Counted from the first letter of the stretch, positions 9,790 to 25,063 are shown. The stretch is DNA of 64,000 bases from Alphaproteobacteria bacterium (GCA_049609145.1 JBMYYF010000003.1:247770-311769); one strand, 5' to 3'. The notes: generated by a model from the sequence alone, not told the origin. Numbers and translations are program-made.

Positions 9790-10083
9790 AATCTTGCCTG
9801 CCCAATTACCTCGCGCAAATCATTGCCAGAGGCCCTGCCTGTTTGGTTGGCCGCCCGTTAACGCGCGGAAGCCTTACCGGTGAATACGCAAACCACCTCA
9901 ACTTTGTGGCAGCGGAGGCGGGTGCACCCCTCACAATCGATGCAACCCGCCCCTGCCAATCCTGATGTCATCCGATGTTGAGACGTGCCCGCGGGGCCGA
10001 ACCGGAAGTTTGAGACGCTGCAATCACGCCGCCCACGGCGTTTTTGCGGACATCAGGCACACGAAACCAACTCCGGTTTCGTA

Positions 10084-10108
10084 TGGGATGTATCGGGATA
10101 CCATGGGT
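10084..10108. promoter_or_regulatory. Putative MraZ operator: three TGGGN-like repeats with 5-nt spacers
   Basis: TGGGA-tgtat-CGGGA-tacca-TGGGT at a 10-bp period upstream of mraZ, matching the known MraZ repeat architecture. Confidence 0.65.
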
Positions 10109-10228
10109 TTTGATCTTTCGTCAATGGAAATCGACCTAAAGCCCAGTAAAAATAAGGCTTTTGAGTCCACTTGAGAATCCCCGGAAGGCCCAAAACAGAG
10201 ATCAAAAAGAGAACATGTCGGAAAAAAA

Positions 10229-10618
<390 letters not shown>

Positions 10619-10625
10619 GGCGGAC

Positions 10626-11318
10626 TTAACGGGGTTTTGTCAATGCGGTCAAGGCCTTGCGCGTACCCTGATCCGCGCAACCAGAGAAACAACTTGGCCT
10701 GAACCGCCGTTGGAATGCCCGGGTCGCCGCGGTTTCATCGCTTACATCATAACCAAAAGCGGCCAAGCCTTGGATCAGTTCGGCGCGATCGGCAGGCGTT
10801 TGGTCTTCGCAGCCTTGCGGCACCGGCAAACAAAGCCCCTGTGCCGCCAATCGCCCCCAAGGAAAATGCTCGCCCGGGTCTTGCTTGCGAGTGGGCGCAA
10901 TATCCGAATGCGCGACCACCCGGCTTTTGGGAACGCCATAGCGCCCCATAATCCCGGCCAGCAACTGCCCCACCACCTGCATCTGGCTATCTGGAAACAC
11001 TTGCAAGCTGCCATCTGCCATCAAAAAATCATGGCCGCGATTGACGATTTCTATGCCGATGGAGCACGAATTGATATCCGTCTCCCCGGCCCAAAAGCTC
11101 ACACCGGCATGCCAGGCGCGCTTATCTTCAGCCACAAGCTGCAACACCCGCCCGTCGCGTTCCACTACATAATGCGCCGAAACCTGCGCGGCGGGATCAC
11201 ACAAATGCGCCGTGGCCGCCGCCCCATTTTCCATGCCGGTATAATGCAGCACAACCATATTGATCGGGCCTGATGGACGTTCCCCAAAATTAGGCGATGG
11301 ATGTTGTATGATCTGCAT
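10626..11318 (-). CDS. N-acetylmuramoyl-L-alanine amidase (Amidase_2, AmiD/AmpD-like)
   Basis: VLHYTG, VSAHY, RAWHAGVS, SIGIEI, HSDIAP and RKQDPG motifs; C-terminal AFQRRFRP. Confidence 0.93.
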   Translation of the reverse strand: MQIIQHPSPNFGERPSGPINMVVLHYTGMENGAAATAHLCDPAAQVSAHYVVERDGRVLQLVAEDKRAWHAGVSFWAGETDINSCSIGIEIVNRGHDFLMADGSLQVFPDSQMQVVGQLLAGIMGRYGVPKSRVVAHSDIAPTRKQDPGEHFPWGRLAAQGLCLPVPQGCEDQTPADRAELIQGLAAFGYDVSDETAATRAFQRRFRPSCFSGCADQGTRKALTALTKPR

Positions 11319-12199
11319 CACACCTCCACCTTGGCGGGTACGGTACGTTGGCGCATCGCAATTATCAGGCAGCCACTCAATGTAATGACAATGCCCATAA
11401 TCATCCGCGGGCTTAGTACATCCCCCATCAAGGTCACACCGAACATAACCCCGAAGGTGGGCGCCAGCAGCGATAGCGGCGCGATCAACGACACATCATA
11501 GCGCTGCACCAAATAGAAATTCGCGGCGTGCCCGATAAGACTGGCCCCCAGCGCCGTGTAAAGCACCGCACCCCAAGCCGCCCAGCTTGCATTCTGCATG
11601 GCTTCAATCTGGCCGCTTTCCAAGGCGAATGAGGCAACGAACAGTAACGGCCAACTCAACATGGCAACCCATGCCTGCATTTGAAACGGTCCCACATCAT
11701 GCACGCGCTTCATGTAAATCATGCCGATAGATCCCAGCAACGCCGCCATCACCGCCAGCCCAACGCCATCAAGATAGCCCAGCACCCGCGGATCAAAGCT
11801 GATCAACATCACCCCGCCAAAGGCCAACGTAATGCCCAAGCCGCGCCGCCAGCGCACTTTTTCCTTCAAAAAGATCATCGACAAGATGGTCGAAAACGGC
11901 ACCGAAAGCTGCACCGCCACCGCCACAGACGACACATCATCTGCCAGCGCCATGCCGCCATAGAAAAAGCAAAAATGCAGACCGCCGGAAAACAGCGAGA
12001 TGATTGCAACCGTTTTCATCTGCCCCGGTGCCACCTTCAACACCGGCAATAATACTGCCGCCAACAAGACATAACGTAACGCCGTAAACAAAATGGGCGG
12101 CAGTTCCATCACCCCCCATTTGCCCGCCACAAAGGTAAACCCCCACACCACACAGGTGAAGATCATCAAGGCCAGATGGGCCGGCTTCATGACAGTCAT
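11318..12199 (-). CDS. EamA/DMT family transporter
   Basis: About 10 hydrophobic segments in two EamA repeats. Confidence 0.9.
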   Translation of the reverse strand: MTVMKPAHLALMIFTCVVWGFTFVAGKWGVMELPPILFTALRYVLLAAVLLPVLKVAPGQMKTVAIISLFSGGLHFCFFYGGMALADDVSSVAVAVQLSVPFSTILSMIFLKEKVRWRRGLGITLAFGGVMLISFDPRVLGYLDGVGLAVMAALLGSIGMIYMKRVHDVGPFQMQAWVAMLSWPLLFVASFALESGQIEAMQNASWAAWGAVLYTALGASLIGHAANFYLVQRYDVSLIAPLSLLAPTFGVMFGVTLMGDVLSPRMIMGIVITLSGCLIIAMRQRTVPAKVEV

Positions 12200-12207
12200 A
12201 AAGGTTC

Positions 12208-12930
12208 CTAACTCAGCCCGCGGGCCTGCTTGATATGGTCATAGGCGTCGTTGATCGCCGCCAGTTTTTGGCCTGCCTGCCGGATGAACTCTTCCGGCAC
12301 GCCGCGCGCAATCAAAGCATCGGGATGATTTTCCCGCGCCAAGGCGCGCCATGCATTCTTAATTGTTGTGTCGTCAGCATCTGGCGCCACCCCCAACACG
12401 GCATAGGGATCAACGCCATCATCACCTGGCACATAAATAGCGCACAGCCGCGCAAAAACCTTGGGGTCCAGTTTGAATATCTCGCTTACCGCTTCAAGAT
12501 ACAGCAGCTCGTTCTCATGCATTATGCCATCGGCCTGCGCGATATAGAAAAGACCGTGCAGCACATCTTCCAACAGGGCCGCATCACCGCGCAAAATGCG
12601 CCGCACATCGCGGGCATACAGGTCGAACCCGGCCACATCCTGTCGCGCCAAATCGAACATTCTGGCAACATGGTGCATTTCCGCCTGTGGAAAATCGAAC
12701 ACTTGGCGAAAAGCCGCCACCTCATCGCGCGTCACCACCCCATCTGCCTTGGCCATTTTGGCCGATAGCGCAATGACAGCAATGGTAAAGCCGGTTGCCT
12801 TGGTGGGATCACGCCCCTCCCCGCCGCCAGCCATGGCACTTTCCCCCAACACGGCATAGGCCAACCGCCCCAAAAGCCCATCAGGCTTGAGAGTCCGGGC
12901 AGCGTCTGCGATGCGATCCAAAAAGGCCAT
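12208..12930 (-). CDS. djlA: DjlA-like co-chaperone (TerB-like domain plus C-terminal J domain)
   Basis: FTIAVIALSAKMAKADG, DPYAVLG, HPD and INDAYD motifs. Confidence 0.88.
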   Translation of the reverse strand: MAFLDRIADAARTLKPDGLLGRLAYAVLGESAMAGGGEGRDPTKATGFTIAVIALSAKMAKADGVVTRDEVAAFRQVFDFPQAEMHHVARMFDLARQDVAGFDLYARDVRRILRGDAALLEDVLHGLFYIAQADGIMHENELLYLEAVSEIFKLDPKVFARLCAIYVPGDDGVDPYAVLGVAPDADDTTIKNAWRALARENHPDALIARGVPEEFIRQAGQKLAAINDAYDHIKQARGLS

Positions 12931-13049
12931 AAAGATCAATCCCTTTGCGCGAACACTATGTCAGAAGCCTGCGCAATGTGCATCCCAAAGCGCCCAAACC
13001 CCTTTGCGGCGGATCGCCCTCACCCTATTTTTGACCCCCGGTTTCAGCC

Positions 13050-13120
13050 TGTGGATAAGTTTGTGGAAATTTTTTCGCGATTCGACCAGAAAAGACTCCA
13101 CAAAAGTGTTTTTTAGAGTC
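13050..13120. promoter_or_regulatory. DnaA box(es) plus three clustered GANTC (CcrM) sites
   Basis: Perfect TGTGGATAA at 13050-13058 and near-match TGTGGAAAT at 13062-13070; GATTC at 13079, GACTC at 13094, GAGTC at 13116. Confidence 0.55.
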
Positions 13121-13135
13121 AAACTTGTCGCACCC

Positions 13136-13333
13136 ATGAGACGGAATTCTTGGTGAACCGCTTTATGGCCTCGCAAGGCATCCCAAACTGCCTTGCACCC
13201 TACTTCGGGCGCCCGCATTCCCGAAGCTCTGGATGGCCCACCCTCGCCCAAAGGGTGTTTGTGTTTCACCTGTCTCGTCCGTGGTTTACCTCACCAGGGG
13301 ACCCTGCCCGAACCCTCCGGGCAGGGTCTTTTT
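13136..13333 (+). ncRNA. Candidate structured small RNA (multi-hairpin, C-rich loops, intrinsic terminator)
   Basis: Closing stems 13136-13143/13271-13278 and 13152-13157/13265-13270 enclose three hairpins. An 11-bp terminator stem at 13300-13328 is followed by T5. No credible ORF. Confidence 0.6.
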
Positions 13334-13399
13334 GTTTCTGGTCGTCCTCAATAAAATTGCCTCTATCCCGGTGCGTCAAAGGCTTGTAAATCTTGCATC

Positions 13400-14194
13400 A
13401 TGTTGGACGACAGCCGAATAGAGCATTTCAGAACCAACGGCCTGCTAAAGCTGCCGGGCTTTTTCGACGCTGCCACCATGCCCCCCATGCGCGAGAAGGT
13501 TTGGGCCTTTCTGGAAGCGCGGGACAATGTATGCCGCAACGATCCCGCAAGCTGGCCTGCCATAACCAATCCGCCAGCGGGCGCGGCGCGGCCAACCAAA
13601 CTCATCCGCCTCAATACCGACCCTGCCTTCAACGTGCTGGACACTACCGCGCTGCTTGACACCTTGCGCGCCTTGGCAGGCAGCGATGTTACGCCATTTC
13701 CCGGCGCGGGCCACCGGCAAGTATTATTCACCTATCCCGAAACGCTTGAATGGGCTTTGCCGCATAATATGTGGCACGCCGATCTGCCCCACGCGATTGG
13801 CCGGAAAGCACCGACAGGCCTGCAAGCTTTTCTGTGTCTGGATGAGGTGCGTCCCACAGGGGGTGGCACAATCGTGTTGAGCGGCAGCCATCGCGCCCTT
13901 GTCAATCAATCCGGCCAAGCCGGACAAACCCACCTGCCCTCAAGCGCGTTCAAGAAATGGCTGGCGCGCAAAAGCGATTATGTGAGCGCCCTGTTCGCCA
14001 AAGACACACCCAACAGAAACCGCTTTCTCAACCAACCGGGCATGTTCGATGAGATTGAATTGCAGCCGGTGGAACTAATAGGCGCGCCCGGCGATCTCTA
14101 TATTATGGATATGCGCTGCCTGCACAGCTTGGCCCCCAATGCGCAAAACACACCGCGCATCATGCTGACCGAACGCTTTCAAGTGGCTAGCTAG
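13400..14194 (+). CDS. Phytanoyl-CoA dioxygenase (PhyH) family Fe(II)/2OG enzyme
   Basis: FRTNGLLKL, WHAD (HxD), GGTIVLSGSH, GAPGD...LHS and PRIM motifs. Confidence 0.85.
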   Translation: MLDDSRIEHFRTNGLLKLPGFFDAATMPPMREKVWAFLEARDNVCRNDPASWPAITNPPAGAARPTKLIRLNTDPAFNVLDTTALLDTLRALAGSDVTPFPGAGHRQVLFTYPETLEWALPHNMWHADLPHAIGRKAPTGLQAFLCLDEVRPTGGGTIVLSGSHRALVNQSGQAGQTHLPSSAFKKWLARKSDYVSALFAKDTPNRNRFLNQPGMFDEIELQPVELIGAPGDLYIMDMRCLHSLAPNAQNTPRIMLTERFQVAS

Positions 14195-14290
14195 CAGCCG
14201 CCGTTAAACCGAACGACGTGCATCCCGAAAAGACCCGCGCGGTTTCCTGTAGGGGTGACAGACAATACCGGACCACGCGCAAAATAAAAC

Positions 14291-14320
14291 AAGACCCGGC
14301 AGTTTCCTGCCGGGCCTTTC
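14291..14320. terminator. Intrinsic terminator between convergent genes
   Basis: CCCGGCAG-tttc-CTGCCGGG with A-rich and T-rich flanks. Confidence 0.75.
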
Positions 14321-14339
14321 GTTTTCGCGCCTTGAAGAA

Positions 14340-15653
14340 CTACCTGCTGTATGGTGAACTCCGTTGCGGCTGTACCGTTTTTGGCTGCTGATATTGCGGC
14401 GCGCCCTGATATTGTTGCTGGCTTGAGGCGGGCTTGTTTTTCTGTTCCACCTTCTTGCCACTCACGGCCTGTTGCTTGACCGTCTTGGGCTTCGGCTTGG
14501 CCATCCCGCGCTGTTGCACCTGCCCCTTCTGCACGCTGGAACCTTTGACGTTGGGATCTTGCACGCTTTCGCCCTTCTTCTTGGCGTAGAAGTTCACAGT
14601 GCCGATATGCACCTGCTTGCGCGGCACGGAGAAATGCACACGATAGCTATAAGTACCCAGTGCAGGGCGGTCGGCATCTTTCAGCGTGCCATATTGAATA
14701 CCCCGGTCATTGGCGGCAAAGCGTTTGGAAGCGATGGAAACCCACCGGCTGTCGCCTTTTTTCTGCCGCTGCAAATAAACGGTTTGTGCCGGGCAGGTTG
14801 CCCCATCCTTGTTGGACAGACTGATCTTGGTTTGCACCGCCTCGGTTTGGCCCATATCGGATTTGCCGATCTTCGATGCTGATCCGACAATGTTGCACTT
14901 ACTGGGGCAGCTTTCTACGATATTGATCCGCGGCGTACTTTTGCGAATGCCAACGCGACCGATATCAGGCGTGTCACCATAGGCAGATGCCCATAGTCTC
15001 TCTGTGCCTTTCTGCTTGATTTCAACACGGTCAAACTGCACCCGCACGGCGCGCCCTCCCGCCGGCATACGCACATTCTTTGAGGCGATAATGTTGTGCG
15101 GGTCCATGCTGTTATCATCTCCCAACGACACCTTCACCGGCAAAGTATGATTGCCTTGATAGTCTTGCTTGGCATTTTTCAGCACTGCGATAACGGTATT
15201 ACACTTGCCGATACGTAGGCCATGGCCGCCAACAACGGCAATGCTTTGGATCACAGCGGAGGGCAGGCTTTTACATTTTGGGTGATCCCAATTCGCATAA
15301 CCCCGGCTGGTTTTTTCCTTGCACCAGGTTGAAAACATGGCGTCGTCAGAGTTTTGAGATTTGGAATCACTGCCGGAACTCGAAGACGATCCGCCAGTGC
15401 TTGATGAACCGCTGGACGATGAATGGGGCCCGGTATAATTCTCATCGCCCGGAATATCCGATCCGCCATCTCGCCGCTTGCCACAAGCTTCGTATCTGTG
15501 AAAACGCGCATGTTCATGAGCAAGTCGGAATTCATTGCCGCAATGATAGTGATCCGCTTTGGCCTCGGTCGGCATTGTCATAATAGCAGCCGGTGCCAAC
15601 ACCCCGGCGGTGAGTGCCACGGCAGGCAGCACTTTCAATAATGGATTTCGCAT
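14340..15653 (-). CDS. Secreted protein of unknown function: His/Cys-rich N-terminus, Ser linker, two putative Ig-like domains, K/Q-rich tail (paralog 1)
   Basis: Signal peptide ending AKA; GGGAAGG RBS; shares G-x-CN...CP and TLxD...GxYxY motifs with the genes at 18345 and 19461. Confidence 0.8.
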   Translation of the reverse strand: MRNPLLKVLPAVALTAGVLAPAAIMTMPTEAKADHYHCGNEFRLAHEHARFHRYEACGKRRDGGSDIPGDENYTGPHSSSSGSSSTGGSSSSSGSDSKSQNSDDAMFSTWCKEKTSRGYANWDHPKCKSLPSAVIQSIAVVGGHGLRIGKCNTVIAVLKNAKQDYQGNHTLPVKVSLGDDNSMDPHNIIASKNVRMPAGGRAVRVQFDRVEIKQKGTERLWASAYGDTPDIGRVGIRKSTPRINIVESCPSKCNIVGSASKIGKSDMGQTEAVQTKISLSNKDGATCPAQTVYLQRQKKGDSRWVSIASKRFAANDRGIQYGTLKDADRPALGTYSYRVHFSVPRKQVHIGTVNFYAKKKGESVQDPNVKGSSVQKGQVQQRGMAKPKPKTVKQQAVSGKKVEQKNKPASSQQQYQGAPQYQQPKTVQPQRSSPYSR

Positions 15654-15834
15654 AATCTTCCCTTCCCTTGGACCCGACCAAGATTGATCGGTCAGCGAGT
15701 GTCACGCGCAAATAAGGCGAGAAGTTTCGCGAAATGCGGCAGCAATCAAGTTAATTCGTGACAAAGTTCGTTCAAGAATAAGGCAAAATCAAGCACTTAT
15801 TGGCTTGGCAGCTTAATGGGCGTTAAACAGCCCC

Positions 15835-16443
15835 CTACACTGTACTGGCCAGATCACGCGCCACTTTCAGCAATTCCCGCCTTGTCAGCCCCATGCGCGC
15901 GCGCACCGCCAAAGCAAATAACAGGCTGGAATATAGCTGCGCCATTTGATCGGCGCTCTTGCCCCGCTGTTTCAATTCCACTGCATAATCCCGCGCGATC
16001 ACGGCGGCCAGCGCGCTGTCCATCTCGGTGACAAAACCGCTTAGAATATTCTGCACCCCCTCATCCACCACAGCGGCAGGCAGCGACGTGCCGATCAACA
16101 GACAGCCCACTGAATGGCCGCTCACCGGCGCATAAACCTTGGCGGCTTCTTGCAACATGGTTGCCGCCGCCTCTGCCAATGTGGCCTTGCCTGCCACTGC
16201 GTCCATCACTAGCCCATGGGCCAGCGCCGCATAGTCTTCAATGATGCGGGCAAACAGGGCCGCCTTGTCACCAAAACTGTTATAGAGGCTGGGCTTGGAC
16301 AGCCCCGTTGCCAGACCGATCTTGTCATAGCTGGTGGCCTCAAACCCCTGCGCCAAAAAAATCTCACCGGCCTTGGCCAGCACGGCGGCTTCATCAAATT
16401 TGCGAGGCCTGCCACGACCCCCTGATTTATTTTTATCCGACAT
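15835..16443 (-). CDS. TetR/AcrR family regulator
   Basis: GRPRKFD...GFEATS...GLSKPSLYNSFGDK HTH; GCL motif in the C-terminal domain. Confidence 0.93.
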   Translation of the reverse strand: MSDKNKSGGRGRPRKFDEAAVLAKAGEIFLAQGFEATSYDKIGLATGLSKPSLYNSFGDKAALFARIIEDYAALAHGLVMDAVAGKATLAEAAATMLQEAAKVYAPVSGHSVGCLLIGTSLPAAVVDEGVQNILSGFVTEMDSALAAVIARDYAVELKQRGKSADQMAQLYSSLLFALAVRARMGLTRRELLKVARDLASTV

Positions 16444-16475
16444 CGTATATATTTCTTGCAATTGCGTTGGCTATT

Positions 16476-16495
16476 TTTATACTAATCCGTACAAA
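16476..16495. promoter_or_regulatory. Probable TetR operator
   Basis: Imperfect inverted repeat TTTATAC-N6-GTACAAA in the 74-bp divergent gap between the TetR and MBL genes. Confidence 0.55.
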
Positions 16496-16517
16496 TAATC
16501 AATTGATGGAGGCCGTC

Positions 16518-17477
16518 ATGCAAGCCAGTCGCGCCATATTGTTGGGGCTTTCCGCCCTTTTCGCTGCCGTTGCCCTCTATTTTTGGGCAAACCCGGCCCC
16601 GCTCAAGAAAGCGGCGTTTTCGCAGGCCATGCCAGTGGATTACTTTGCGCCTTATGAGGAAAGCATCCCGCCCGCGCTCTATCAGGTACAAGGCCCCATC
16701 TATGCCTATGAACATGGGTTTACCCGTTCCCTCATCATCGTCACCGACGGCGGCATCGCTGTATTCGATACGTTTGACGAAGCCCATGCGCATGACATGA
16801 AGGCGGCTTTGGCCGAACAGTTTCCCGGCAACCCGGTGCGCTGGGTGGTTTATTCCCACAACCACCTTGATCACTTGCGCGGCTCTGATGTGTTTTCCGG
16901 CGCTGAAGTCATTGGCCATACGCTGGTGAATGATCTGGTGGCCGATTGGCCCGAAGCAGGCAAAAGCATCGCGCCGGTCACCCGCGCCATAGAGGGCGAT
17001 ACGGTTCTGCAATTCGGCCCGGTCACGGTAGATGCACTTTATATGACCTTCTCTCACTCCCATACGCTTTATGGCTTTCATGTGCGCGACCATGATGTGG
17101 TGTTTGCAGCAGACATGATGTTTGTGAAGGCCGTGCCGCCCTTTGACTTTCCAGACTTCTACCACCCCGGCTATATCCGCGCCTTGGATCGTCTGATTGC
17201 CCTGAACGCTGCCCACTATGTGCCCAGCCATATGGACCGCGGCACGCGCGACGACTTGATCGCCTTCCGTGACATGATGGTGAAGGTTGAGGCAACCATT
17301 CGCGGCTTGTTTCTCACCCATGGGGAAGCCATCGCGACCGATGGCTATATCATGCGTCAGAGCCTGCGTGACAGCTATGATGTTTTGGCCGCCGACTATG
17401 GTGATTGGCACGGTTTTGACGCCATGTTCGTTCCCAAATTCGGTCGCCATTGGGGCGGAGCCTATTTGGGATATTAG
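16518..17477 (+). CDS. Exported or membrane-anchored MBL-fold metallo-hydrolase
   Basis: HNHLDH (HxHxDH), later H, D and PSH ligands; hydrophobic N-terminus; GGAGG RBS before the ATG at 16518. Confidence 0.88.
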   Translation: MQASRAILLGLSALFAAVALYFWANPAPLKKAAFSQAMPVDYFAPYEESIPPALYQVQGPIYAYEHGFTRSLIIVTDGGIAVFDTFDEAHAHDMKAALAEQFPGNPVRWVVYSHNHLDHLRGSDVFSGAEVIGHTLVNDLVADWPEAGKSIAPVTRAIEGDTVLQFGPVTVDALYMTFSHSHTLYGFHVRDHDVVFAADMMFVKAVPPFDFPDFYHPGYIRALDRLIALNAAHYVPSHMDRGTRDDLIAFRDMMVKVEATIRGLFLTHGEAIATDGYIMRQSLRDSYDVLAADYGDWHGFDAMFVPKFGRHWGGAYLGY

Positions 17478-18274
17478 AGCTTGGCCGCGGCGTCACACAC
17501 CGCTTGCTCAACTTCTCCTTGATCATCTGTCTGCGCGAAGCCTGCAATGGTGATGGCCTCGCGGCGGAAGTGATAGCAAGCAAAGACGCTGCCCGGCCCC
17601 TGCCCTGTATGACCAAAGCAGCGGCCCATATCGGCCATCACGCCCAGCCCATAGGTCGGCATCTTCCATGGGCGGCCGGGCAATGGCCCGCCAATCTGTG
17701 ATTGGTCCGACAGTGCCCACGCGCCAAAATCATCACGCGCCATCGCGTCCAACTGCAAGGCTGCATCGGCCAAGGTGCCCGCCATCAAACCATGCGCGAC
17801 CCATCTTGGATCATAAGGGGGGTCATACCCCTCCAACGGCTCTGATACGAAGGGCAGCGCAATGCCTTGGCATTCCAACTCTTCGCGCAAAAGCATGTAG
17901 CCGATATTGGAATAGGCAAAGGCTTGGCCCGGCTCACCGATCAGATCATCAGCCTTGGTTTCTGCCCAAAAACGATCCGCATCCCACGGGGTATCACCGC
18001 GTGCCGCTGCCTGATGATAGTGAGGCAAGGGTCCATAGCACGACAGGCCCGCGCGGTGCATCAAAACCTCTTTCACCGTGTAGAGCGTGAAGGGACCACC
18101 ACGCCCGCGCAAAGGCCGTTCAATATCAATCTCATTGCGCCAAAACGCGGCGGCGATCAGCAGCTTGGTAAAGCTCCACCACGGCACCGCATCATCCGCA
18201 GTCGCCGCGGTCGCCGCGGTCGCCGCGGTCGACCGGGTCGTCACCGCCCCATTTTCAACAACACAAAGCTGCAT
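17474..18274 (-). CDS. Short serine hydrolase (beta-lactamase/class C-like)
   Basis: SFTK (SxxK), YSN and HTG motifs. Confidence 0.8.
   Translation of the reverse strand: MQLCVVENGAVTTRSTAATAATAATADDAVPWWSFTKLLIAAAFWRNEIDIERPLRGRGGPFTLYTVKEVLMHRAGLSCYGPLPHYHQAAARGDTPWDADRFWAETKADDLIGEPGQAFAYSNIGYMLLREELECQGIALPFVSEPLEGYDPPYDPRWVAHGLMAGTLADAALQLDAMARDDFGAWALSDQSQIGGPLPGRPWKMPTYGLGVMADMGRCFGHTGQGPGSVFACYHFRREAITIAGFAQTDDQGEVEQAVCDAAAKL
18201..18231. repeat. 9-bp tandem repeat (GTCGCCGCG)x3 encoding Thr-Ala-Ala repeats
   Basis: gtcgccgcg gtcgccgcg gtcgccgcg gtcg inside the 5' end of the serine hydrolase gene. Confidence 0.85.
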
Positions 18275-18284
18275 CTATTCCCCC

Positions 18285-18321
18285 AAAAGAAAGGCGCCGC
18301 GATAATTCTATCACGGCGCCT
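18285..18321 (-). terminator. Intrinsic terminator after secreted paralog 2
   Basis: AGGCGCCG...CGGCGCCT hairpin followed by a U-rich tract on the minus strand. Confidence 0.7.
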
Positions 18322-18344
18322 GATCTGTTTTAACCCATTTTGCG

Positions 18345-19262
18345 CTAGCGACGAATTGTAGGGTTCGTCCGCTTGGGTTTTACCTGTTGCGGTTTTTGTA
18401 AGTCGTTCCGGTTATAGGTTTTTTTGGGAGCACCGGTAGAAGCATTCGGGTTCGTCACTTCCCCGAAATCATACCACCCCAGTTCCTTGCTCACTACATA
18501 TTGCAAAACCGGATCAAAATACGAGATACTGTAATGGTAAGCGCCGACCTTCGGCGTAGCGGTATCAGTCAGAGTAATACTTCTTTTTCCCGTCGTCGGT
18601 TTTACCCGCTTTTCAAATTTCCTTGCCGCCCCGTCCGGACCGTTATTACGCCACAAACTAAACTTGTTCACCTCGCAGTTAGGATTACGCGGATTTTCAT
18701 ATGTCACCGTAGCCGTAAAATTGCCCCTTCCTTTGTATTTTGCGGCACCGGCCTTGTTTTTCCCGCCATATGTGGGCTGAACCGTCACGTTTTCCCAGCA
18801 CCGTGCCTCGGGACAAACCTTGTTCACCTGCACCGCGCCATGCTTTTCAGAGTAGGTGGAAAAATCTCCATCTCGCGATTTGGCATCCTGATTGTTAACG
18901 CTGGCACGCAACGACGCCCTGAAAGGCACATCGCCCGCTATTGTGAAATTACGAAACCGCACCGTACGATCACCATGCCCGCCATACGAAACGCGGCGCT
19001 TAGAATCGGCGGTGGTATTTGCCTGTCCGGGATTTGCCCGCAAGCTAATATAGAGATTCCGTTTTGGTACTTTGGACGAACGCGGGGCAACTGTTACATC
19101 AATCGTGTTGCAACTCCCCTTTTTTGCATCGCCCAAAACTTTTATCGACTTCACATAAATATCGTATTGATCGGCGGCGTTTGCCACGGTGGGCGACAAG
19201 GTGGCTGCCGCCAACACACCGGCGGCTATTGGCACCGCCCATAGATTTTTTTGAATTTGCAT
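18345..19262 (-). CDS. Secreted protein of unknown function, two putative Ig-like domains (paralog 2)
   Basis: Start MQIQKNLW after AGGGAAGG RBS; signal peptide ending ANA; GSCNTIDV, TVRFRN, CP and basic tail. Confidence 0.8.
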   Translation of the reverse strand: MQIQKNLWAVPIAAGVLAAATLSPTVANAADQYDIYVKSIKVLGDAKKGSCNTIDVTVAPRSSKVPKRNLYISLRANPGQANTTADSKRRVSYGGHGDRTVRFRNFTIAGDVPFRASLRASVNNQDAKSRDGDFSTYSEKHGAVQVNKVCPEARCWENVTVQPTYGGKNKAGAAKYKGRGNFTATVTYENPRNPNCEVNKFSLWRNNGPDGAARKFEKRVKPTTGKRSITLTDTATPKVGAYHYSISYFDPVLQYVVSKELGWYDFGEVTNPNASTGAPKKTYNRNDLQKPQQVKPKRTNPTIRR

Positions 19263-19363
19263 TTTGTTTCCTTCCCTGTTGCCGCCCCATATTTCATGAA
19301 CATTATGGCGTTTAACGGGCGCGAACAAGGCCGCATTGGGAAACATTCAGGCAAAACAAAGGC
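19251..19363. repeat. Duplicated promoter/leader/start segment, copy 1
   Basis: Near-identical to 20031-20144, with exact blocks of 27 bp (19251-19277) and 41 bp (19323-19363). Confidence 0.95.
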
Positions 19364-19399
19364 TGCGCGCTTAATGGCGGTGAAGCGGCGGCCGTTCCC

Positions 19400-19433
19400 A
19401 AACGCAAAACGCCGCGATGTTTCCACCGCGGCG
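19400..19433 (-). terminator. Intrinsic terminator after secreted paralog 3
   Basis: CGCCGCG...CGCGGCG hairpin followed by TTTT on the minus strand. Confidence 0.65.
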
Positions 19434-19460
19434 CTTGGATGATTTATCAGGCTCGTGTGG

Positions 19461-20042
19461 CTAGCGCCAAGTGCCCGTTTTGGTGCCTCTGGGTGCCATT
19501 TGCTTTTTCTGATATTGCGGGCTTTTCTGCAGCTTGCCATCCGCCCCGCGGCGCGTGCTGGATTTCGGGCAGGTGCTTTTAACATTCCATGTGCCACGCA
19601 CCACGTTGTCGCTATTGTCAGCATCCGTATGATATCCGGCGCTGCCACCCATAAACTTGGCTTGATAACGCACACTCCCGCCGGGGCTGCGCGAAACCTC
19701 CATATTCCGGAAGCGTACGGTTTTGGTTGTCGATGTACCGTCAAATTTTACCGTTTGCCATTTCGACTTCATCCCCTTGTCGTAACGCGAGGGATCTTCC
19801 AACCAAACATTAACGGACCCCTTTTTACTTGGCCCCGATATGGCCACAACAACATCGATCGTATTACACGAACCAGTACGCAAACTGTTTGACGACACAA
19901 TTTTTGCGCTTTTGATGGCGTAGTTTTTGTCTGACGTACTATCCTGACGGTCAACGGCCAGCGCAGGGGTTGACGTGACGGCCACACCGGCCACAAGACC
20001 AAGCGCCAAAGGTGCCGCAAGCCATTTAGATTGAATTTGCAT
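19461..20042 (-). CDS. Secreted protein of unknown function, one putative Ig/CARDB-like domain (paralog 3)
   Basis: Start MQIQSKWL; signal peptide ending ALA; GSCNTIDV, TVRFRN, DADNSDN, CP and PQYQ tail. Confidence 0.8.
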   Translation of the reverse strand: MQIQSKWLAAPLALGLVAGVAVTSTPALAVDRQDSTSDKNYAIKSAKIVSSNSLRTGSCNTIDVVVAISGPSKKGSVNVWLEDPSRYDKGMKSKWQTVKFDGTSTTKTVRFRNMEVSRSPGGSVRYQAKFMGGSAGYHTDADNSDNVVRGTWNVKSTCPKSSTRRGADGKLQKSPQYQKKQMAPRGTKTGTWR

Positions 20043-20144
20043 TTTGTTTCCTTCCCTATATGCCACCCTCATTTTCATGAACTTTATGGCGTTCAAAGGG
20101 TAAGAACAAGGCCGCATTGGGAAACATTCAGGCAAAACAAAGGC
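20031..20144. repeat. Duplicated promoter/leader/start segment, copy 2
   Basis: Near-identical to 19251-19363; ends 11 bp from the metH stop codon. Confidence 0.95.
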
Positions 20145-20155
20145 AAATTACGGAT

Positions 20156-22807
20156 TTAGGCGTCGTAATTCAGGATCGGGGCCAGCCAGCGCTCTACCAC
20201 GGCCAAGTCCATGCCCTTGCGCTTGGCGTAGTCTTCCACTTGGTCTTTCTCAATCTTGCCGGTGCCGAAATATTCACTATCAGGATGCGCAAAATAAAGA
20301 CCGGACACCGCCGCGCCGGGCCACATGGCAAAGCTTTCCGTCAGCTCAATCCCTGCATTTTCGGTCGCGTTCAACAGCTTAAACAGGGTTTCTTTTTCCG
20401 TGTGGTCGGGCTGGGCGGGATAGCCCGGCGCGGGGCGAATGCCTTGATATTTCTCCAATATCAGGGCTTCGGTATCCAAACCTTCATCCGCCGCATAGCC
20501 CCAATAATCGCGCCGCACCTTGGCGTGCAGATATTCCGCAAAGGCTTCTGCCAAGCGATCGGCCAAAGCCTCACACAAAATGGCATTGTAATCATCGCCC
20601 GCTTCTTTGAAAGCATCGGCGCGTTCTTTCACGCCATGGCCTGCCGTGACCGCAAAGCCGCCAATATAGTCATCCCCTTGCGGTGCCACAAAATCCGCCA
20701 AGGCATAGTTTGCCCGGCCCGCTGAATGCACCATTTGTTGACGGATCGTGTGCAGCCGCGTGCCATCTTCCAACACAATGTCATCGCCATCGGAGTTTGC
20801 TTTCCACAAACCCGCAACACCTTTGGCGGTGAACCATTTCTCTGCCACGATTTGCTTCAGCATCGCCTGCGCATCTTCATAAAGCGGCTTGGCGGCTTCC
20901 CCCACAATGGGGTCTTCCAAAATTTCGGGGAAGTGCCCGGCCAGTTCCCAGGTTGAGAAGAAAGGCGTCCAGTCAATATAGGGCACAAGGTCTTCCAACG
21001 GCACATCATCCAGCACGGTGAGGCCCAATTTCTTCGGCGTCACCGGCGCATAGGTGAGCTTGGGCGCATTGGCGCGCGCGTCGGCAATCTTTAAACGCTC
21101 TACCTGTTTGCGACCGGCCAAATGCTTTTCGCGGATGCTGTCATATTCTGACCTAATCTCCCGCGCGAAGGCATTATCATTGCTGACGGAAAGCAGGTTC
21201 TGCACCACGCCCACGGCGCGGGACGCATCCGGCACATAAACGGTTGAGCCTTCAAAACCCGGTGCCACCTTAACAGCGGTATGCACGCGGGATGTTGTTG
21301 CGCCGCCAATCAACAAAGGTTGATGGAAGCCTTCACGCTCCATCTCCTTCGCCATATGCACCATCTCATCAAGCGAGGGCGTGATAAGACCGGACAGGCC
21401 AATCACATCTACTTTTTCTTCGCGCGCGACATCCAAGATTTTTTGCGCAGGCACCATGACGCCCAGATCAATCACTTCGTAATTGTTGCACTGCAGCACA
21501 ACGCCCACGATGTTTTTGCCAATGTCATGCACATCGCCCTTCACGGTCGCGAGCAGGATTTTACCGGCAGATTGGGTTTTGCCATCATCTTCCGCCTCCA
21601 TAAACGGCATCAGATAGGCCACGGCCTTTTTCATCACCCGGGCAGATTTCACCACCTGTGGCAAAAACATTTTGCCGGAGCCGAAAAGATCCCCCACCAC
21701 ATTCATGCCGTCCATCAACGGGCCTTCAATCACATGCAAGGGGCGCTGGGCCAATTGGCGGGCCTCTTCCACATCTTCATCCACATAATCGCCAATGCCA
21801 TGCACCAGTGAATGGGTAAGCCGCGCATTCACATCGCCCTCGCGCCAGGTCAAATCCTTTTCTTTGGTTTTGGCCCCGCCGCCGCGATATTCCTCGGCAA
21901 TTTCCAGCAGGCGGTCGGTCGCGTCATCGCGCCGGTTCAGCAGCACATCTTCCACACGGTCGCGCAAATCTTTTGGAATGTCTTCATACACATCCAATTG
22001 GCCCGCATTCACAATCGCCATATCCAGCCCGGCCTGAATGCCATGATACAGAAAACAACTATGCATGGCGCGGCGCACAGGTTCGTTCCCACGGAATGAA
22101 AACGACACGTTGGACAAACCGCCGGACACGCGCGCATGGGGCAGCGTTTCCTTAATGCGCTTGGTCGCTTCAAAGAAATCCATGGCGTAATTGTTGTGTT
22201 CTTCAATGCCGGTGGCGACGGCGAAGATATTGGGATCGAAGATAATGTCTTCCGGCGCAACGCCCACTTCTTCCGTTAGGATTTTGTAGGAGCGCGTGCA
22301 GATTTCCACTTTGCGATCTGCCGTATCGGCTTGGCCGTCCTCATCAAACGCCATCACCACCATGGCGGCCCCATAGCGGCGCACTTTTTTGGCCTGTTCA
22401 ATAAATTGATCCACCCCTTCCTTCATGGAAATGGAGTTCACAACCGCCTTGCCTTGCACGCATTTCAGCCCCGCCTCAATGACAGACCACTTTGAGCTGT
22501 CGATCATTACGGGCACGCGCGCAATATCCGGCTCCGCCGCGATCAAATTCAAAAAGCGCACCATGGCGGCTTCTGAATCCAACATGCCTTCATCCATATT
22601 GATGTCGATGATCTGCGCACCGTTTTCAACTTGATCACGCGCCACCTCCACCGCTGCATCAAAATCCCCATTGGTAATGAGTTTGCGAAACTTGGCAGAG
22701 CCGGTCACATTCGTGCGCTCACCCACATTCACAAAACCCAAGGCTTCGTTCACCACCAAAGGTTCAAGGCCGGAAAGACGTAGTGGCTTCATTTTTTCAG
22801 TACTCAT
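20156..22807 (-). CDS. metH: Cobalamin-dependent methionine synthase (pterin, B12-binding and activation domains)
   Basis: [19 protein letters not shown] (B12-binding) and GIRPAPGYP motifs. Confidence 0.97.
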
Positions 22808-22828
22808 AATTCTTCACTTACCTAAAGT

Positions 22829-22920
22829 GCCATGCCGGGCCCAGACCTTCTGGGGATGGGACCCGGCATCCAGTCTGACTGGACCCCGGCTCGCGGTCTA
22901 ACGACCTTGGCCGGGGTGAC
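22829..22920. repeat. REP-like composite palindromic element
   Basis: GCCATGCCGGG...CCCGGCATCCAG-tctga-CTGGACCCCGGCT...GGCCGGGGTGAC, the twin-hairpin form of the GTCA...TGAC alphaproteobacterial intergenic repeats. Confidence 0.65.
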
Positions 22921-22930
22921 GTTTGTTTTC

Positions 22931-23995
22931 CTAAGCTGCCAGCGCCACACGGCTGCGGGGTTTAACCCCGTCAACCGCTTTGGCAATAGCCGCAATATGA
23001 TCCGGCGTGGTGCCACAGCAACCGCCCACAATGTTGAGCAAGCCGCTTTCCGCCCATTCTTTAATATGTGCGGCCATATCTTCCGGTGTCAGGTCATAAC
23101 CGCCAAACTCATTCGGCAGGCCCGCATTGGGATGGGCAGAGATCAAGGCCGTATCTGCCACGCCATCCAGTTCCACCACATATTGGCGCAGCTCCTTCGG
23201 GCCAAGCGCGCAATTGAGCCCAACCGAAAGCGGCTGCGTATGCGCGATGGAGGTCCAAAAAGCCGGGGCCGTTTGGCCGGAAAGGAAACGACCGGACAGA
23301 TCCGTAATAGTGCCAGAGATCATGATCGGCAACCGAATGCCATAGGCTTCAAACACTTCCTCAATCGCAAACAGTGCCGCCTTGGCGTTCAATGTATCGA
23401 AGATGGTTTCCACCAACAGCAAATCTGCGCCGCCATCAATCAGGCCGCATGTTTCTTCCACATAGGCTTCTACCAAGCCATCAAAGGTAATGTCGCGAAA
23501 CCCCGGATCGTTCACATCGGGACTGATGGAGGCCGTTTTGTTGGTCGGCCCGATAGAGCCTGCCACGAAACGCGCCTTGCCCGTTTCTTGGCCCACCGCA
23601 TCACACACCTCGCGCGCAACCTCTGCGCCTGCCTTATTGATAAGATAGGCATGTTGCTCCAACCCGTAATCGGCCTGCGCGATAGAGGTGCCGGAAAACG
23701 TATTGGTTTCAATAATGTCCGCACCCGCTTCCAAATAGCGACGGTGAATTTCCTTCAACACATCAGGCCGCGTGAGTTGGATCAAGTCATTATTGCCTTT
23801 GAGGTCATGATTGTGACCGCGAAAAATCTCGCCGCGAAAGTCATCTTCGCTCAGATTGTATGATTGGATGAGTGACCCCATGGCGCCATCCAGCACCACA
23901 ATGCGTTCGGCCAAGGCGGCGTTCAAATCTTCAAGCCGCTTCAAACGCGCTGCATTTGTTGCTTCAAAATCATCCGGTTTATTGATCGTGCTCAT
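22931..23995 (-). CDS. metH: Methionine synthase homocysteine-binding (S-methyltransferase) subunit
   Basis: LDGAMG, ETNTF, GLNCALG and GGCCGT Zn-binding motifs; separate N-terminal half of MetH. Confidence 0.95.
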
Positions 23996-24151
23996 GTCGC
24001 ACCTCCTTCCTTATAGCGAAGCAGATTTTCTCATTCCTGAAAATCTGATCGCGGTAGCCCGCGACTGCGGGCCGCGCACAGTTGCGCGCCCTCGCGGAGC
24101 CGTTCAGCTTTGCTGAACTGGCGTGAGCGATAATGGCTGAACCCGGCTGTT

Positions 24152-25063
24152 TCATTTTGAAACCGCCGGGCGAAGCCCTAATATATGGCAGATGGCGTAG
24201 ACCAGATCTGCCCTGTTCAATGTATAGAAGTGAAAGTCCGTTACGCCATGGGCCGCCAAGTCGCGCACTTGGTCTGCGGCCACTGTTGCGGCCACCAGCT
24301 TACGGGTGCCTATGTCGTCATCCAGCCCTTCGTAAAGGTCGCCAAGCCATTGGGGCACACTGGCCCCGGCTTGGGTCGCAAAGCGGCTTACCTGCTTATA
24401 GTTCTGCACCGGCATCACGCCAGGCACAATCGGCACGGTGATACCATGGGCGCGCGCACGTTCTACAAAGTCCACATATAGATGTGTATCGAAAAAGAAC
24501 TGGGTGATGGCGCGGTTGGCCCCCGCCTCCACCTTGGCTTTCAAATTATCCAACTCCACATCCCAGCCAGCGCTGTCAGGATGCGTCTCTGGATAGCACG
24601 CCACCGATATATCCATGTTTGGTTGGCGCGCCTTGATGCCCGCCACCAGATCCGCCGCATTTTTATATCCTTGCGGGTGCGGTTCGTAATGGGTCGCGCC
24701 TTCGGGCGCGTCACCACGCAAAGCGACCAGATGGTTCACACCTTCTTCAGCGTAGTTGTCAATCACCTCGTTCACTTCATCTTTTGAAGCCCCCACACAG
24801 GTGAGATGGCTGGCGGGCTTCAAATCCGTTTCCGTCAAAATGCGGTGCACGGTGCGATGGGTCCGCTCGCGCGTCGAGCCACCGGCGCCATATGTCACCG
24901 ACACGAAGTTTGGGTTCAACGGTGCCAATCGCTGGATGGATTGCCACAGCGTTTCTTCCATTGCCGGGGTGTTTGGCGGGAAGAATTCGAACGAAATGTT
25001 CAGCTTGTCAGCGCTCAAGGGCTGAAACGCACTAAAACGTTCCCGAAACTCTGCTTTCTTCAT
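24152..25063 (-). CDS. metF: 5,10-methylenetetrahydrofolate reductase
   Basis: SFEFFPP, SVTYGAGGST, HLTCV, ITQFFF and FHFYTLN motifs. Confidence 0.97.
   Translation of the reverse strand: MKKAEFRERFSAFQPLSADKLNISFEFFPPNTPAMEETLWQSIQRLAPLNPNFVSVTYGAGGSTRERTHRTVHRILTETDLKPASHLTCVGASKDEVNEVIDNYAEEGVNHLVALRGDAPEGATHYEPHPQGYKNAADLVAGIKARQPNMDISVACYPETHPDSAGWDVELDNLKAKVEAGANRAITQFFFDTHLYVDFVERARAHGITVPIVPGVMPVQNYKQVSRFATQAGASVPQWLGDLYEGLDDDIGTRKLVAATVAADQVRDLAAHGVTDFHFYTLNRADLVYAICHILGLRPAVSK

Follow-up and report, generated by a model that had tools for sequence, protein, structure and literature searches.

Three exported cationic paralogs with Cys-bracketed immunoglobulin-like domains in a lineage-specific insert of a marine alphaproteobacterium

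The 64,000-nucleotide (nt) stretch of an alphaproteobacterial genome analysed here (the window; GCA_049609145.1, JBMYYF010000003.1:247770-311769) contains three genes, P0001, P0002 and P0003, encoding proteins of 437, 305 and 193 amino acid residues (the same names are used for genes and proteins). Each of the three proteins possesses a Sec-type signal peptide, one or two beta-sandwich domains with a Cys pair bracketing each domain, a strong positive charge and a disordered basic tail. The genes are paralogs that arose by duplication and by domain gain or loss within a lineage-specific insert. At the sequence level, the family is new and almost confined to a single lineage; its folds, and exported immunoglobulin (Ig)-like proteins in general, are well known. 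As to their function, we tentatively favour a role as cationic envelope proteins binding polyanions, a proposal that we hold to be possible rather than probable. All three open reading frames (ORFs) lie on the minus strand, at the coordinates given in an earlier reading made from the DNA letters alone (hereafter, the sequence-only reading). They and their parts are as follows.

14340..15653, minus strand: P0001 gene, 437 residues (signal peptide, His/Cys-rich head, Ser-rich linker, domain A, domain B, long Q/K-rich tail)
15555..15653, minus strand: P0001 signal peptide, residues 1-33, cleavage site AKA-D; by inspection
15279..15554, minus strand: P0001 N-terminal extension, residues 34-125; disordered in the model (predicted local distance difference test, pLDDT, 26-40)
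14898..15278, minus strand: P0001 domain A, residues 126-252, Cys151/Cys249
14559..14897, minus strand: P0001 domain B, residues 253-365, Cys253/Cys287; predicted Fn3-like sandwich
14343..14558, minus strand: P0001 tail, residues 366-437, isoelectric point (pI) 10.55, 16 Gln, 11 Lys; pLDDT <45
14291..14318, minus strand: P0001 terminator-like hairpin; terminator scan
18345..19262, minus strand: P0002 gene, 305 residues (signal peptide, domain A, domain B, tail)
18798..19175, minus strand: P0002 domain A, residues 30-155, Cys51/Cys150
18438..18797, minus strand: P0002 domain B, residues 156-275, Cys155/Cys196
18348..18437, minus strand: P0002 basic tail, residues 276-305, pI 11.6
18292..18321, minus strand: P0002 terminator-like hairpin; terminator scan
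19461..20042, minus strand: P0003 gene, 193 residues (signal peptide, domain A, tail)
19563..19955, minus strand: P0003 domain A, residues 30-160, Cys59/Cys158
19464..19562, minus strand: P0003 basic tail, residues 161-193, pI 11.6
19397..19437, minus strand: P0003 3' hairpin (7-bp GC stem, 10-nt loop) and T-rich run; seen by eye, missed by the scan

The three genes are protein-coding, yet their codon usage is atypical. In a codon log-likelihood model trained on 791 long ORFs of the same genome, all three score 0.08-0.09 in the annotated frame and -0.20 or less in the other five frames, and these scores are below the 5th percentile (0.113) of the 791 long ORFs. The longest ORFs begin farther upstream (at 19346 for P0002 and at 20135 for P0003); the motif GGGAAGG, located 7 nt before the ATG in all three genes, marks 19262 and 20042 as the P0002 and P0003 starts. 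The sequence-only reading had assigned a ribosome-binding site of this type and a terminator to each gene. The former is indeed present three times, and the terminator scan recovered two of the terminators, the third being the hairpin at 19397-19437, which shares 76% identity with the P0002 terminator.

Signal peptides were judged by eye instead of with a predictor, on the basis of the n-region, the hydrophobic core and the cleavage site. Each N-terminus has a basic n-region, a hydrophobic core of 15-20 residues and an AKA-D, ANA-A or ALA-V site, and none has a lipobox Cys, in agreement with the Sec signal peptides proposed earlier. The mature proteins P0001, P0002 and P0003 have pI values of 9.86, 10.01 and 10.19 and net charges of +30, +25 and +17, respectively. 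The K/Q/R-rich ends described in the sequence-only reading are found in all three: the last 30-70 residues are rich in Lys, Arg, Gln and Pro, have a pI of 10.6-11.6 if taken alone and are disordered in the models (pLDDT <45). Furthermore, 6 His and 2 Cys are found among the first 24 residues of the P0001 extension, which also contains a poly-Ser linker and a second pair of Cys.

The paralogy was assessed by Smith-Waterman scores against 1000 shuffles after removal of the signal peptides and tails. For domain A, the comparison of P0002 with P0003 gave z 10.6 (0 of 1000 shuffles as good; BLASTP 2e-12) and that of P0001 with P0003 gave z 6.8 (0 of 1000; BLASTP 3e-4); for P0001 and P0002, z was 2.5 (30 of 1000), and BLASTP was not significant. 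Domain B of P0001 and P0002 gave z 4.1 (2 of 1000 shuffles as good), in an order collinear with domain A. P0001 thus belongs to the family because of its link via P0003 and the collinear A-then-B order. The paralogs are 21-31% identical, and the invariant columns of domain A are G-x-C-N-T, V-x-F and C-P. Domain A is bracketed by one Cys pair in each of the proteins, and domain B of P0001 and P0002 contains another. The two domains with their Cys pairs, the first common to all three proteins and the second to the two longer ones, were thus correctly recognised in the sequence-only reading; the 'DxDNSDN' end motif, cited there as a sign of the fold, is present only in P0003 and is not common to the family.

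Hidden Markov models (HMMs) of the two domains were searched with default filters against the 14,631 stop-to-stop ORFs of at least 80 residues in the 3.17-Mb genome (shorter paralogs would escape). Domain A was found in these three genes only, and domain B in two of them only. No further paralog was therefore detected among ORFs of this size by the count that had been suggested earlier as a check, and a separate genome search agrees. A genome-wide search for similarly basic-tailed proteins yielded 80 matches; among the 40 listed, most looked like wrong-frame ORFs and none was convincing.

Direct searches did not connect the proteins to any known family. None of them had a match in Pfam by hmmscan at E up to 1 (CARDB, RbmA-like_FnIII PF22021 and Fn3-like PF14310 included) or in NCBIfam, PHROGs and PADLOC, and the best sequence matches in PDB (E 0.79, and E 0.25 for 2kut) were not significant. 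A word-indexed search of 5.8 billion clusters ('near' length class) returned only the queries or a 199-residue P0002 fragment. With P0002 as a query against 1.84 billion cluster representatives, phmmer reported three proteins with E of 1e-3 or less, namely the P0002 fragment, P0003 and P0005, a subtilase of 1299 residues with repeated C-terminal domains. The latter, the only foreign match (E 1.2e-4), was rejected, as its hhalign probability was 0.1%. No match was found in any of 60 relatives, and pattern scans revealed no relative among 15 matches in genome contigs, 26 in metagenome contigs and 71 in viral contigs.

A profile of the three proteins had a match in one of 400 further genomes from this class (E 5.1e-6 per genome), namely the following protein.

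L015:1375-1815, genome G249: P0006, 147 residues (signal peptide and one CARDB domain)

P0006 matches CARDB (PF07705, 'cell adhesion related domain found in bacteria') with E 3.2e-12 and 47 bits (cut-off 22.7) over profile positions 2-100 of 101. It also matches the domain-A profile (hhalign probability 94%, E 1.4e-7, 91 columns) and P0003 (BLASTP 3e-5) and possesses G-S-C-N-T and a terminal S-C-P, i.e., the same Cys bracket as domain A. As this profile-matched protein is a bona fide CARDB protein with the same Cys bracket, domain A, a sandwich of ~110-125 residues in the models, most plausibly represents a highly diverged CARDB-type domain with a disulfide bracket and not a new fold, with P0006 as the one intermediate. 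In a search of PDB sequences, P0006 gave E 0.014 to 2l0d. The homology is remote and runs through this member of the family; the three proteins themselves do not reach the CARDB gathering score (22.7 bits). Besides this bracket and export as a single CARDB domain, there are differences as well: the Pfam model misses all three proteins, and P0006 has neither a basic tail nor domain B. CARDB domains typically end in acidic residues followed by N-N, and this motif is only hinted at, and only in P0003. Furthermore, the CARDB model at E up to 10 has 4 matches elsewhere in the own genome and none in the insert, and two ordinary CARDB segments of this genome showed no similarity to the domain-A profile (hhalign probability <1%). 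The description of the family as unrecognised in the sequence-only reading thus holds for the direct searches in Pfam, NCBIfam, PHROGs, PADLOC and PDB, but not for domain A, which is a remote CARDB relative. P0006 is present in one of the four genomes of its own order; its neighbours appear by eye to be tautomerase-like and alpha/beta-hydrolase-like ORFs.

Structures of P0002 (residues 30-275) and of mature P0001 were predicted with AlphaFold2 from the three-row alignment. The P0002 model (mean pLDDT 65.2, predicted template modelling (TM) score 0.49) has 15 strands, no helix and two domains. The model of mature P0001 has a mean pLDDT of 49.6, with 72-90 in domain B and less than 45 in the head, linker and tail. 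Foldseek placed RbmA first for the P0002 model (E 6.9e-8, TM 0.33), followed by paired C-terminal sandwiches of transglutaminases, and in VIA 28 chains reached Z of at least 8, none standing out. Domain A matched Ig-like domains in VIA with Z 8-9.5 (GH66 and GH2 enzymes, HAP2 domain 3, complement MG domains, CARDB 3idu); the match to 3idu (Z 8.2, root-mean-square deviation (rmsd) 3.4, 96 aligned residues, 17% identity) was the 26th among many unrelated Ig-like domains of similar Z, with a pLDDT of only ~50-75 in domain A.

The domain B models point to an Fn3-like fold. For P0002, VIA matched domain B to AGS-C, adhesin repeats, the Wzt carbohydrate-binding domain and FnIII modules. For P0001, GH3 enzymes were on top (Z 10.2 for DesR, then 9.3 and 9.2; rmsd 2.8-2.9 over 94-101 residues), and among ESM Atlas models, PF14310 Fn3-like clusters matched its domain B with TM 0.68-0.73 by query. 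Domain B thus superposes on the GH3 enzymes (Z 9.2-10.2), whose C-terminal Fn3-like domain is PF14310; however, it has no sequence match to this family, no attached catalytic GH3 domain and a Cys pair of its own, and the likeness is at the fold level only. Tandem Ig-like proteins of the ESM Atlas matched P0002 with TM ~0.4, and the best scores of an Atlas feature search (0.83) were within the range of shuffled proteins. All in all, the all-beta two-sandwich models, the profile link of domain A to CARDB and the Fn3-like matches of domain B support the CARDB/FN3-like Ig folds suggested in the sequence-only reading.

The genes are located in an insert that was recognised by comparison with three family relatives.

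13333..20155: lineage-specific insert, 6.8 kb, between metH and a DnaJ/TerB gene

In all three relatives, the genes behind metH are DnaJ/TerB and an EamA transporter gene, and none of the seven insert genes was found in them. These are genes for PhyH, P0001, TetR, an MBL-fold protein, a beta-lactamase-like protein, P0002 and P0003 (the neighbours being named from Pfam). The bounds of the insert, ~13,333-20,155, follow from the 45 nt at 13288-13332, which match a conserved hairpin block from the short metH-DnaJ/TerB spacer of genome G001. There is no tRNA gene within 10000-24000, and no mobility gene was noticed among the ORFs. As the relative G002 has a different insert behind metH, lineage-specific DNA seems to be inserted preferentially at this position.

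P0002 and P0003 share, in addition, an upstream leader.

19263..19375, minus strand: P0002 upstream leader/promoter, conserved with the P0003 leader
20043..20155, minus strand: P0003 upstream leader/promoter, beginning directly after the metH stop codon

In these two leaders (~113 nt), 95 of 115 aligned columns are identical, compared with about half of the aligned columns in the coding DNA. The genome has no copies besides these two, and contigs of a related population contain a third; a 37-nt leader core had no match in scans of metagenome contigs and of genome contigs. By eye, both leaders contain a sigma-70-like TTGTTC-N17-TAATGT/TAAAGT, which is absent from the promoter scanner's list. 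A promoter of this type is the simplest reading of the leaders and fits better than a structured RNA, as its spacer is where the variable bases are located; the leader is probably a promoter plus operator, and P0002 and P0003 are probably made together from these near-identical elements. A structured RNA leader or riboswitch was considered and rejected: Rfam had no match in 13000-24500 at E up to 1, the fold energies (z -0.25 and -1.43) were equalled by 68 and 12 of 200 shuffles, and RNAalifold on the two sequences found one compensatory pair of 26. CRP-type boxes were rejected as well, the best sites having 4 mismatches of 10.

The stretch was found in seawater metagenome runs of three studies, with no RNA run among those listed. 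Contigs of one run of the first, probably the source study, are identical to the window, and a 215-nt contig of the third study matches P0002 exactly. Contigs of the second study (two runs) represent a related population; relative to the window, 54 of 2,889 letters differ to the left of the insert, 186 of 4,109 within the insert and 181 of 1,811 in metH. In these contigs, the P0002 core (window 18400-19227, 828 nt) is replaced in frame by 492 unalignable letters; at the 85% threshold, 11 codons at the start of the gene and 18 at its end align with the window. The variant is thereby 336 nt shorter (112 codons, approximately one domain B), and the resulting allele would have 193 residues, the length of P0003. 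Furthermore, ~1.1 kb of extra DNA, followed by the third leader copy, is located between a duplicated metH end and metH. P0001 has a 1-base deletion at 15090 (codon ~188) without a compensating indel, all 28 gap letters of the piece being accounted for; if the contigs are right, P0001 would be frameshifted in domain A in this population, and the deletion could reflect pseudogenisation or a contig error. In contrast, the coding part of P0003 has no indel, and 27 of 980 letters differ in the stretch that contains it. At 15516-15526, in the His-rich head of P0001, there is a cluster of 1-base indels that compensate one another. These structural differences lend support to the designation of the family as diversifying in the sequence-only reading.

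One could go further and regard the locus as a cassette system for variable cationic envelope proteins, whose sandwich core is swapped, duplicated or deleted between strains. In such a system, the leader with the first codons on one side and the tail with the terminator on the other would serve as recombination handles around cores consisting of A only, A and B, or head, A and B. The replacement of the P0002 core and the extra DNA with the third leader copy support this geometry, and we nevertheless consider such a system quite unlikely. If true, it would fit diversifying selection by phages, grazers or competitors, with products that might mask anionic surface receptors, imitate them or serve as markers of self versus non-self. 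A conceptual parallel is the hypervariable Ig-domain gene module of Thermococcales, for which a role in conflict or self/non-self recognition has been proposed (PMC8416519). There, too, exported Ig/CARDB-type proteins are encoded at loci differing between close relatives; however, that module is archaeal and involves large multi-domain proteins and variable downstream genes.

The role that we tentatively favour for P0001-P0003 is that of cationic envelope proteins. After export by Sec and cleavage by signal peptidase I, each domain would be stapled by one disulfide in the oxidising periplasm, and the proteins would remain in the cell envelope, i.e., in the periplasm, at the outer membrane or on the cell surface. 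There, their cationic domain surfaces and flexible basic tails would bind polyanionic polymers, candidates being lipopolysaccharide, capsule, exopolysaccharide or holdfast polysaccharide, periplasmic glucans and extracellular DNA, and the sandwich domains would serve as spacers or specific binding modules. Such a role would resemble that of small tandem-sandwich matrix/adhesion proteins such as RbmA of Vibrio cholerae (PDB 4be5/4be6/4kkp).

Indeed, RbmA is exported, has ~225-250 mature residues and consists of two tandem FnIII (fibronectin type III) sandwiches. Besides being the top Foldseek match, it gave Z 9.4 in VIA to both domains of the P0002 model, and its second domain matched domain B of P0001 (Z 9.1, rmsd 3.3, 99 residues). 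However, this plan of two tandem sandwiches in an exported protein of ~25 kDa is shared by P0002 only, P0003 being a single-domain protein and P0001 having additional parts. RbmA is not known to have a long basic tail or Cys brackets, and it is exported by way of a type II system. Direct binding of RbmA to Vibrio polysaccharide, a polyanionic exopolysaccharide, has been reported (PMC5605196). The proteins studied here may have a mode of action similar to that of RbmA, without membership in its family.

Several points weigh against a polyanion-binding role in the envelope. First, no type II secretion system was found: the genome, with a completeness score of 100%, has 0 GspL matches, and its single secretin, with a pilus N-terminal domain and located beside RcpC/CpaB, is of the Tad-pilus type. 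Consequently, there is no identified outer-membrane route for folded disulfide-bonded proteins, and they may be purely periplasmic; the word 'secreted' in the sequence-only reading is justified as far as Sec export but not beyond it. Second, a high pI and disordered tails fit many other roles. Third, the fold matches are generic (28 and 36 chains at Z of at least 8 without a stand-out), the model confidence is modest with alignments of three sequences, and the RbmA superposition has TM 0.33, rmsd ~15 over both domains and identity of 14-16%. Finally, in view of the uncompensated 1-base deletion in P0001 and the replaced P0002 core in the related population, none of the three looks essential.

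The alternative that survives best, though we regard it as unlikely, is that the proteins are periplasmic inhibitors or immunity proteins neutralising incoming enzymes or toxins of competitors or phages, the locus varying as the attackers vary. Ig-like folds are known to serve as peptidase inhibitors (PMC3901451). This explanation would account for Sec export with no route out of the periplasm found, for tandem paralogs in a strain-variable insert and for the near absence of homologs, as is the case for fast-evolving conflict genes. However, no toxin, effector or type VI gene lies alongside (the neighbours encode a PhyH dioxygenase, TetR, MBL-fold and beta-lactamase-like proteins), and PADLOC had no match for any of the three proteins. 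In addition, periplasmic immunity proteins are not known to have net charges of +17 to +30 or long disordered basic tails.

Less probable still is that the proteins act outside the cell as matrix scaffolds of the RbmA type, released, oligomeric and cross-linking exopolysaccharide to hold cells together or to particles. In fact, RbmA is the top Foldseek match, P0002 has the same size and two-domain plan, and the genome encodes adhesion machinery (the Tad-pilus secretin and 2 CsgG/HfaB-family matches). Against this stand the missing RbmA-like_FnIII (PF22021) match in Pfam at E up to 1 and the type II system, which was not found here, whereas export of RbmA needs one. CsgG-type pores pass unfolded chains and are ill-suited to disulfide-stapled domains.

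It is improbable, too, that we are dealing with lineage-specific genes that are decaying or without function and that persist only by chance in an insert of recent acquisition. A codon score below the 5th percentile of long ORFs, the absence from all three family relatives and, in the related population, the apparent P0001 frameshift and the replaced P0002 core would be compatible with decay. However, the three long ORFs are intact and retain, at 21-31% identity, the Cys, Gly and hydrophobic positions critical to the fold, the domains are modelled with confidence, the leader is conserved in 95 of 115 aligned columns, and the coding part of P0003 is free of indels, with 27 of 980 letters differing in its stretch. 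Finally, metal handling in the envelope, i.e., binding of Cu, Zn or Ni in the periplasm by the sandwich domains or by the His/Cys-rich head of P0001, is very unlikely: the mature P0001 N-terminus does have 6 His and 2 Cys in 24 residues and the solved CARDB domain 3idu was, according to its title, crystallised with di-metal ions, but this head occurs in one of three paralogs only, the invariant columns hold no His, Met or Asp cluster, and no metal-resistance genes are nearby.

Several observations concern the surroundings of the genes. The hairpin at 13288-13332 is GC-rich and followed by a T-run on the plus strand, without a T-run in the metH direction; it may end a small unannotated transcript heading towards metH rather than metH itself. 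The metH sequence, for cobalamin-dependent methionine synthase, appears to be split into two minus-strand ORFs, 20156-22807 (883 residues) and 22931-23995 (354 residues), judging from the translations, the 354-residue ORF resembling the homocysteine-binding part and the 883-residue ORF the rest. The 883-residue part has 77-80% identity to its counterparts in the three family relatives. The beta-lactamase-like gene of the insert covers only positions 17-154 of the 329-position Beta-lactamase profile; a 9-nt tandem repeat of ~4-5 units at 18196-18240 encodes (A-T-A)n near the N-terminus of this protein and has one unit fewer in the related population. In G002, the different insert behind metH encodes an exported-looking 202-residue protein with an acidic, Asp-rich C-terminus (L010:407-1015, minus strand), beside an oxoprolinase-like gene.

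In itself, the finding concerns an ordinary kind of protein, and its role is only inferred. Exported proteins without recognisable relatives nevertheless make up a large share of the unexplained genes of marine bacteria, and the present case shows how a single bridging sequence can link one of these orphans to common Ig-like modules (CARDB-type and Fn3-like). Moreover, domain gain or loss, tandem duplication and allele replacement are all visible in one small locus between near-identical populations. Should cell-surface selection underlie this variation, the locus would serve as a compact model for envelope variation in uncultured marine alphaproteobacteria.

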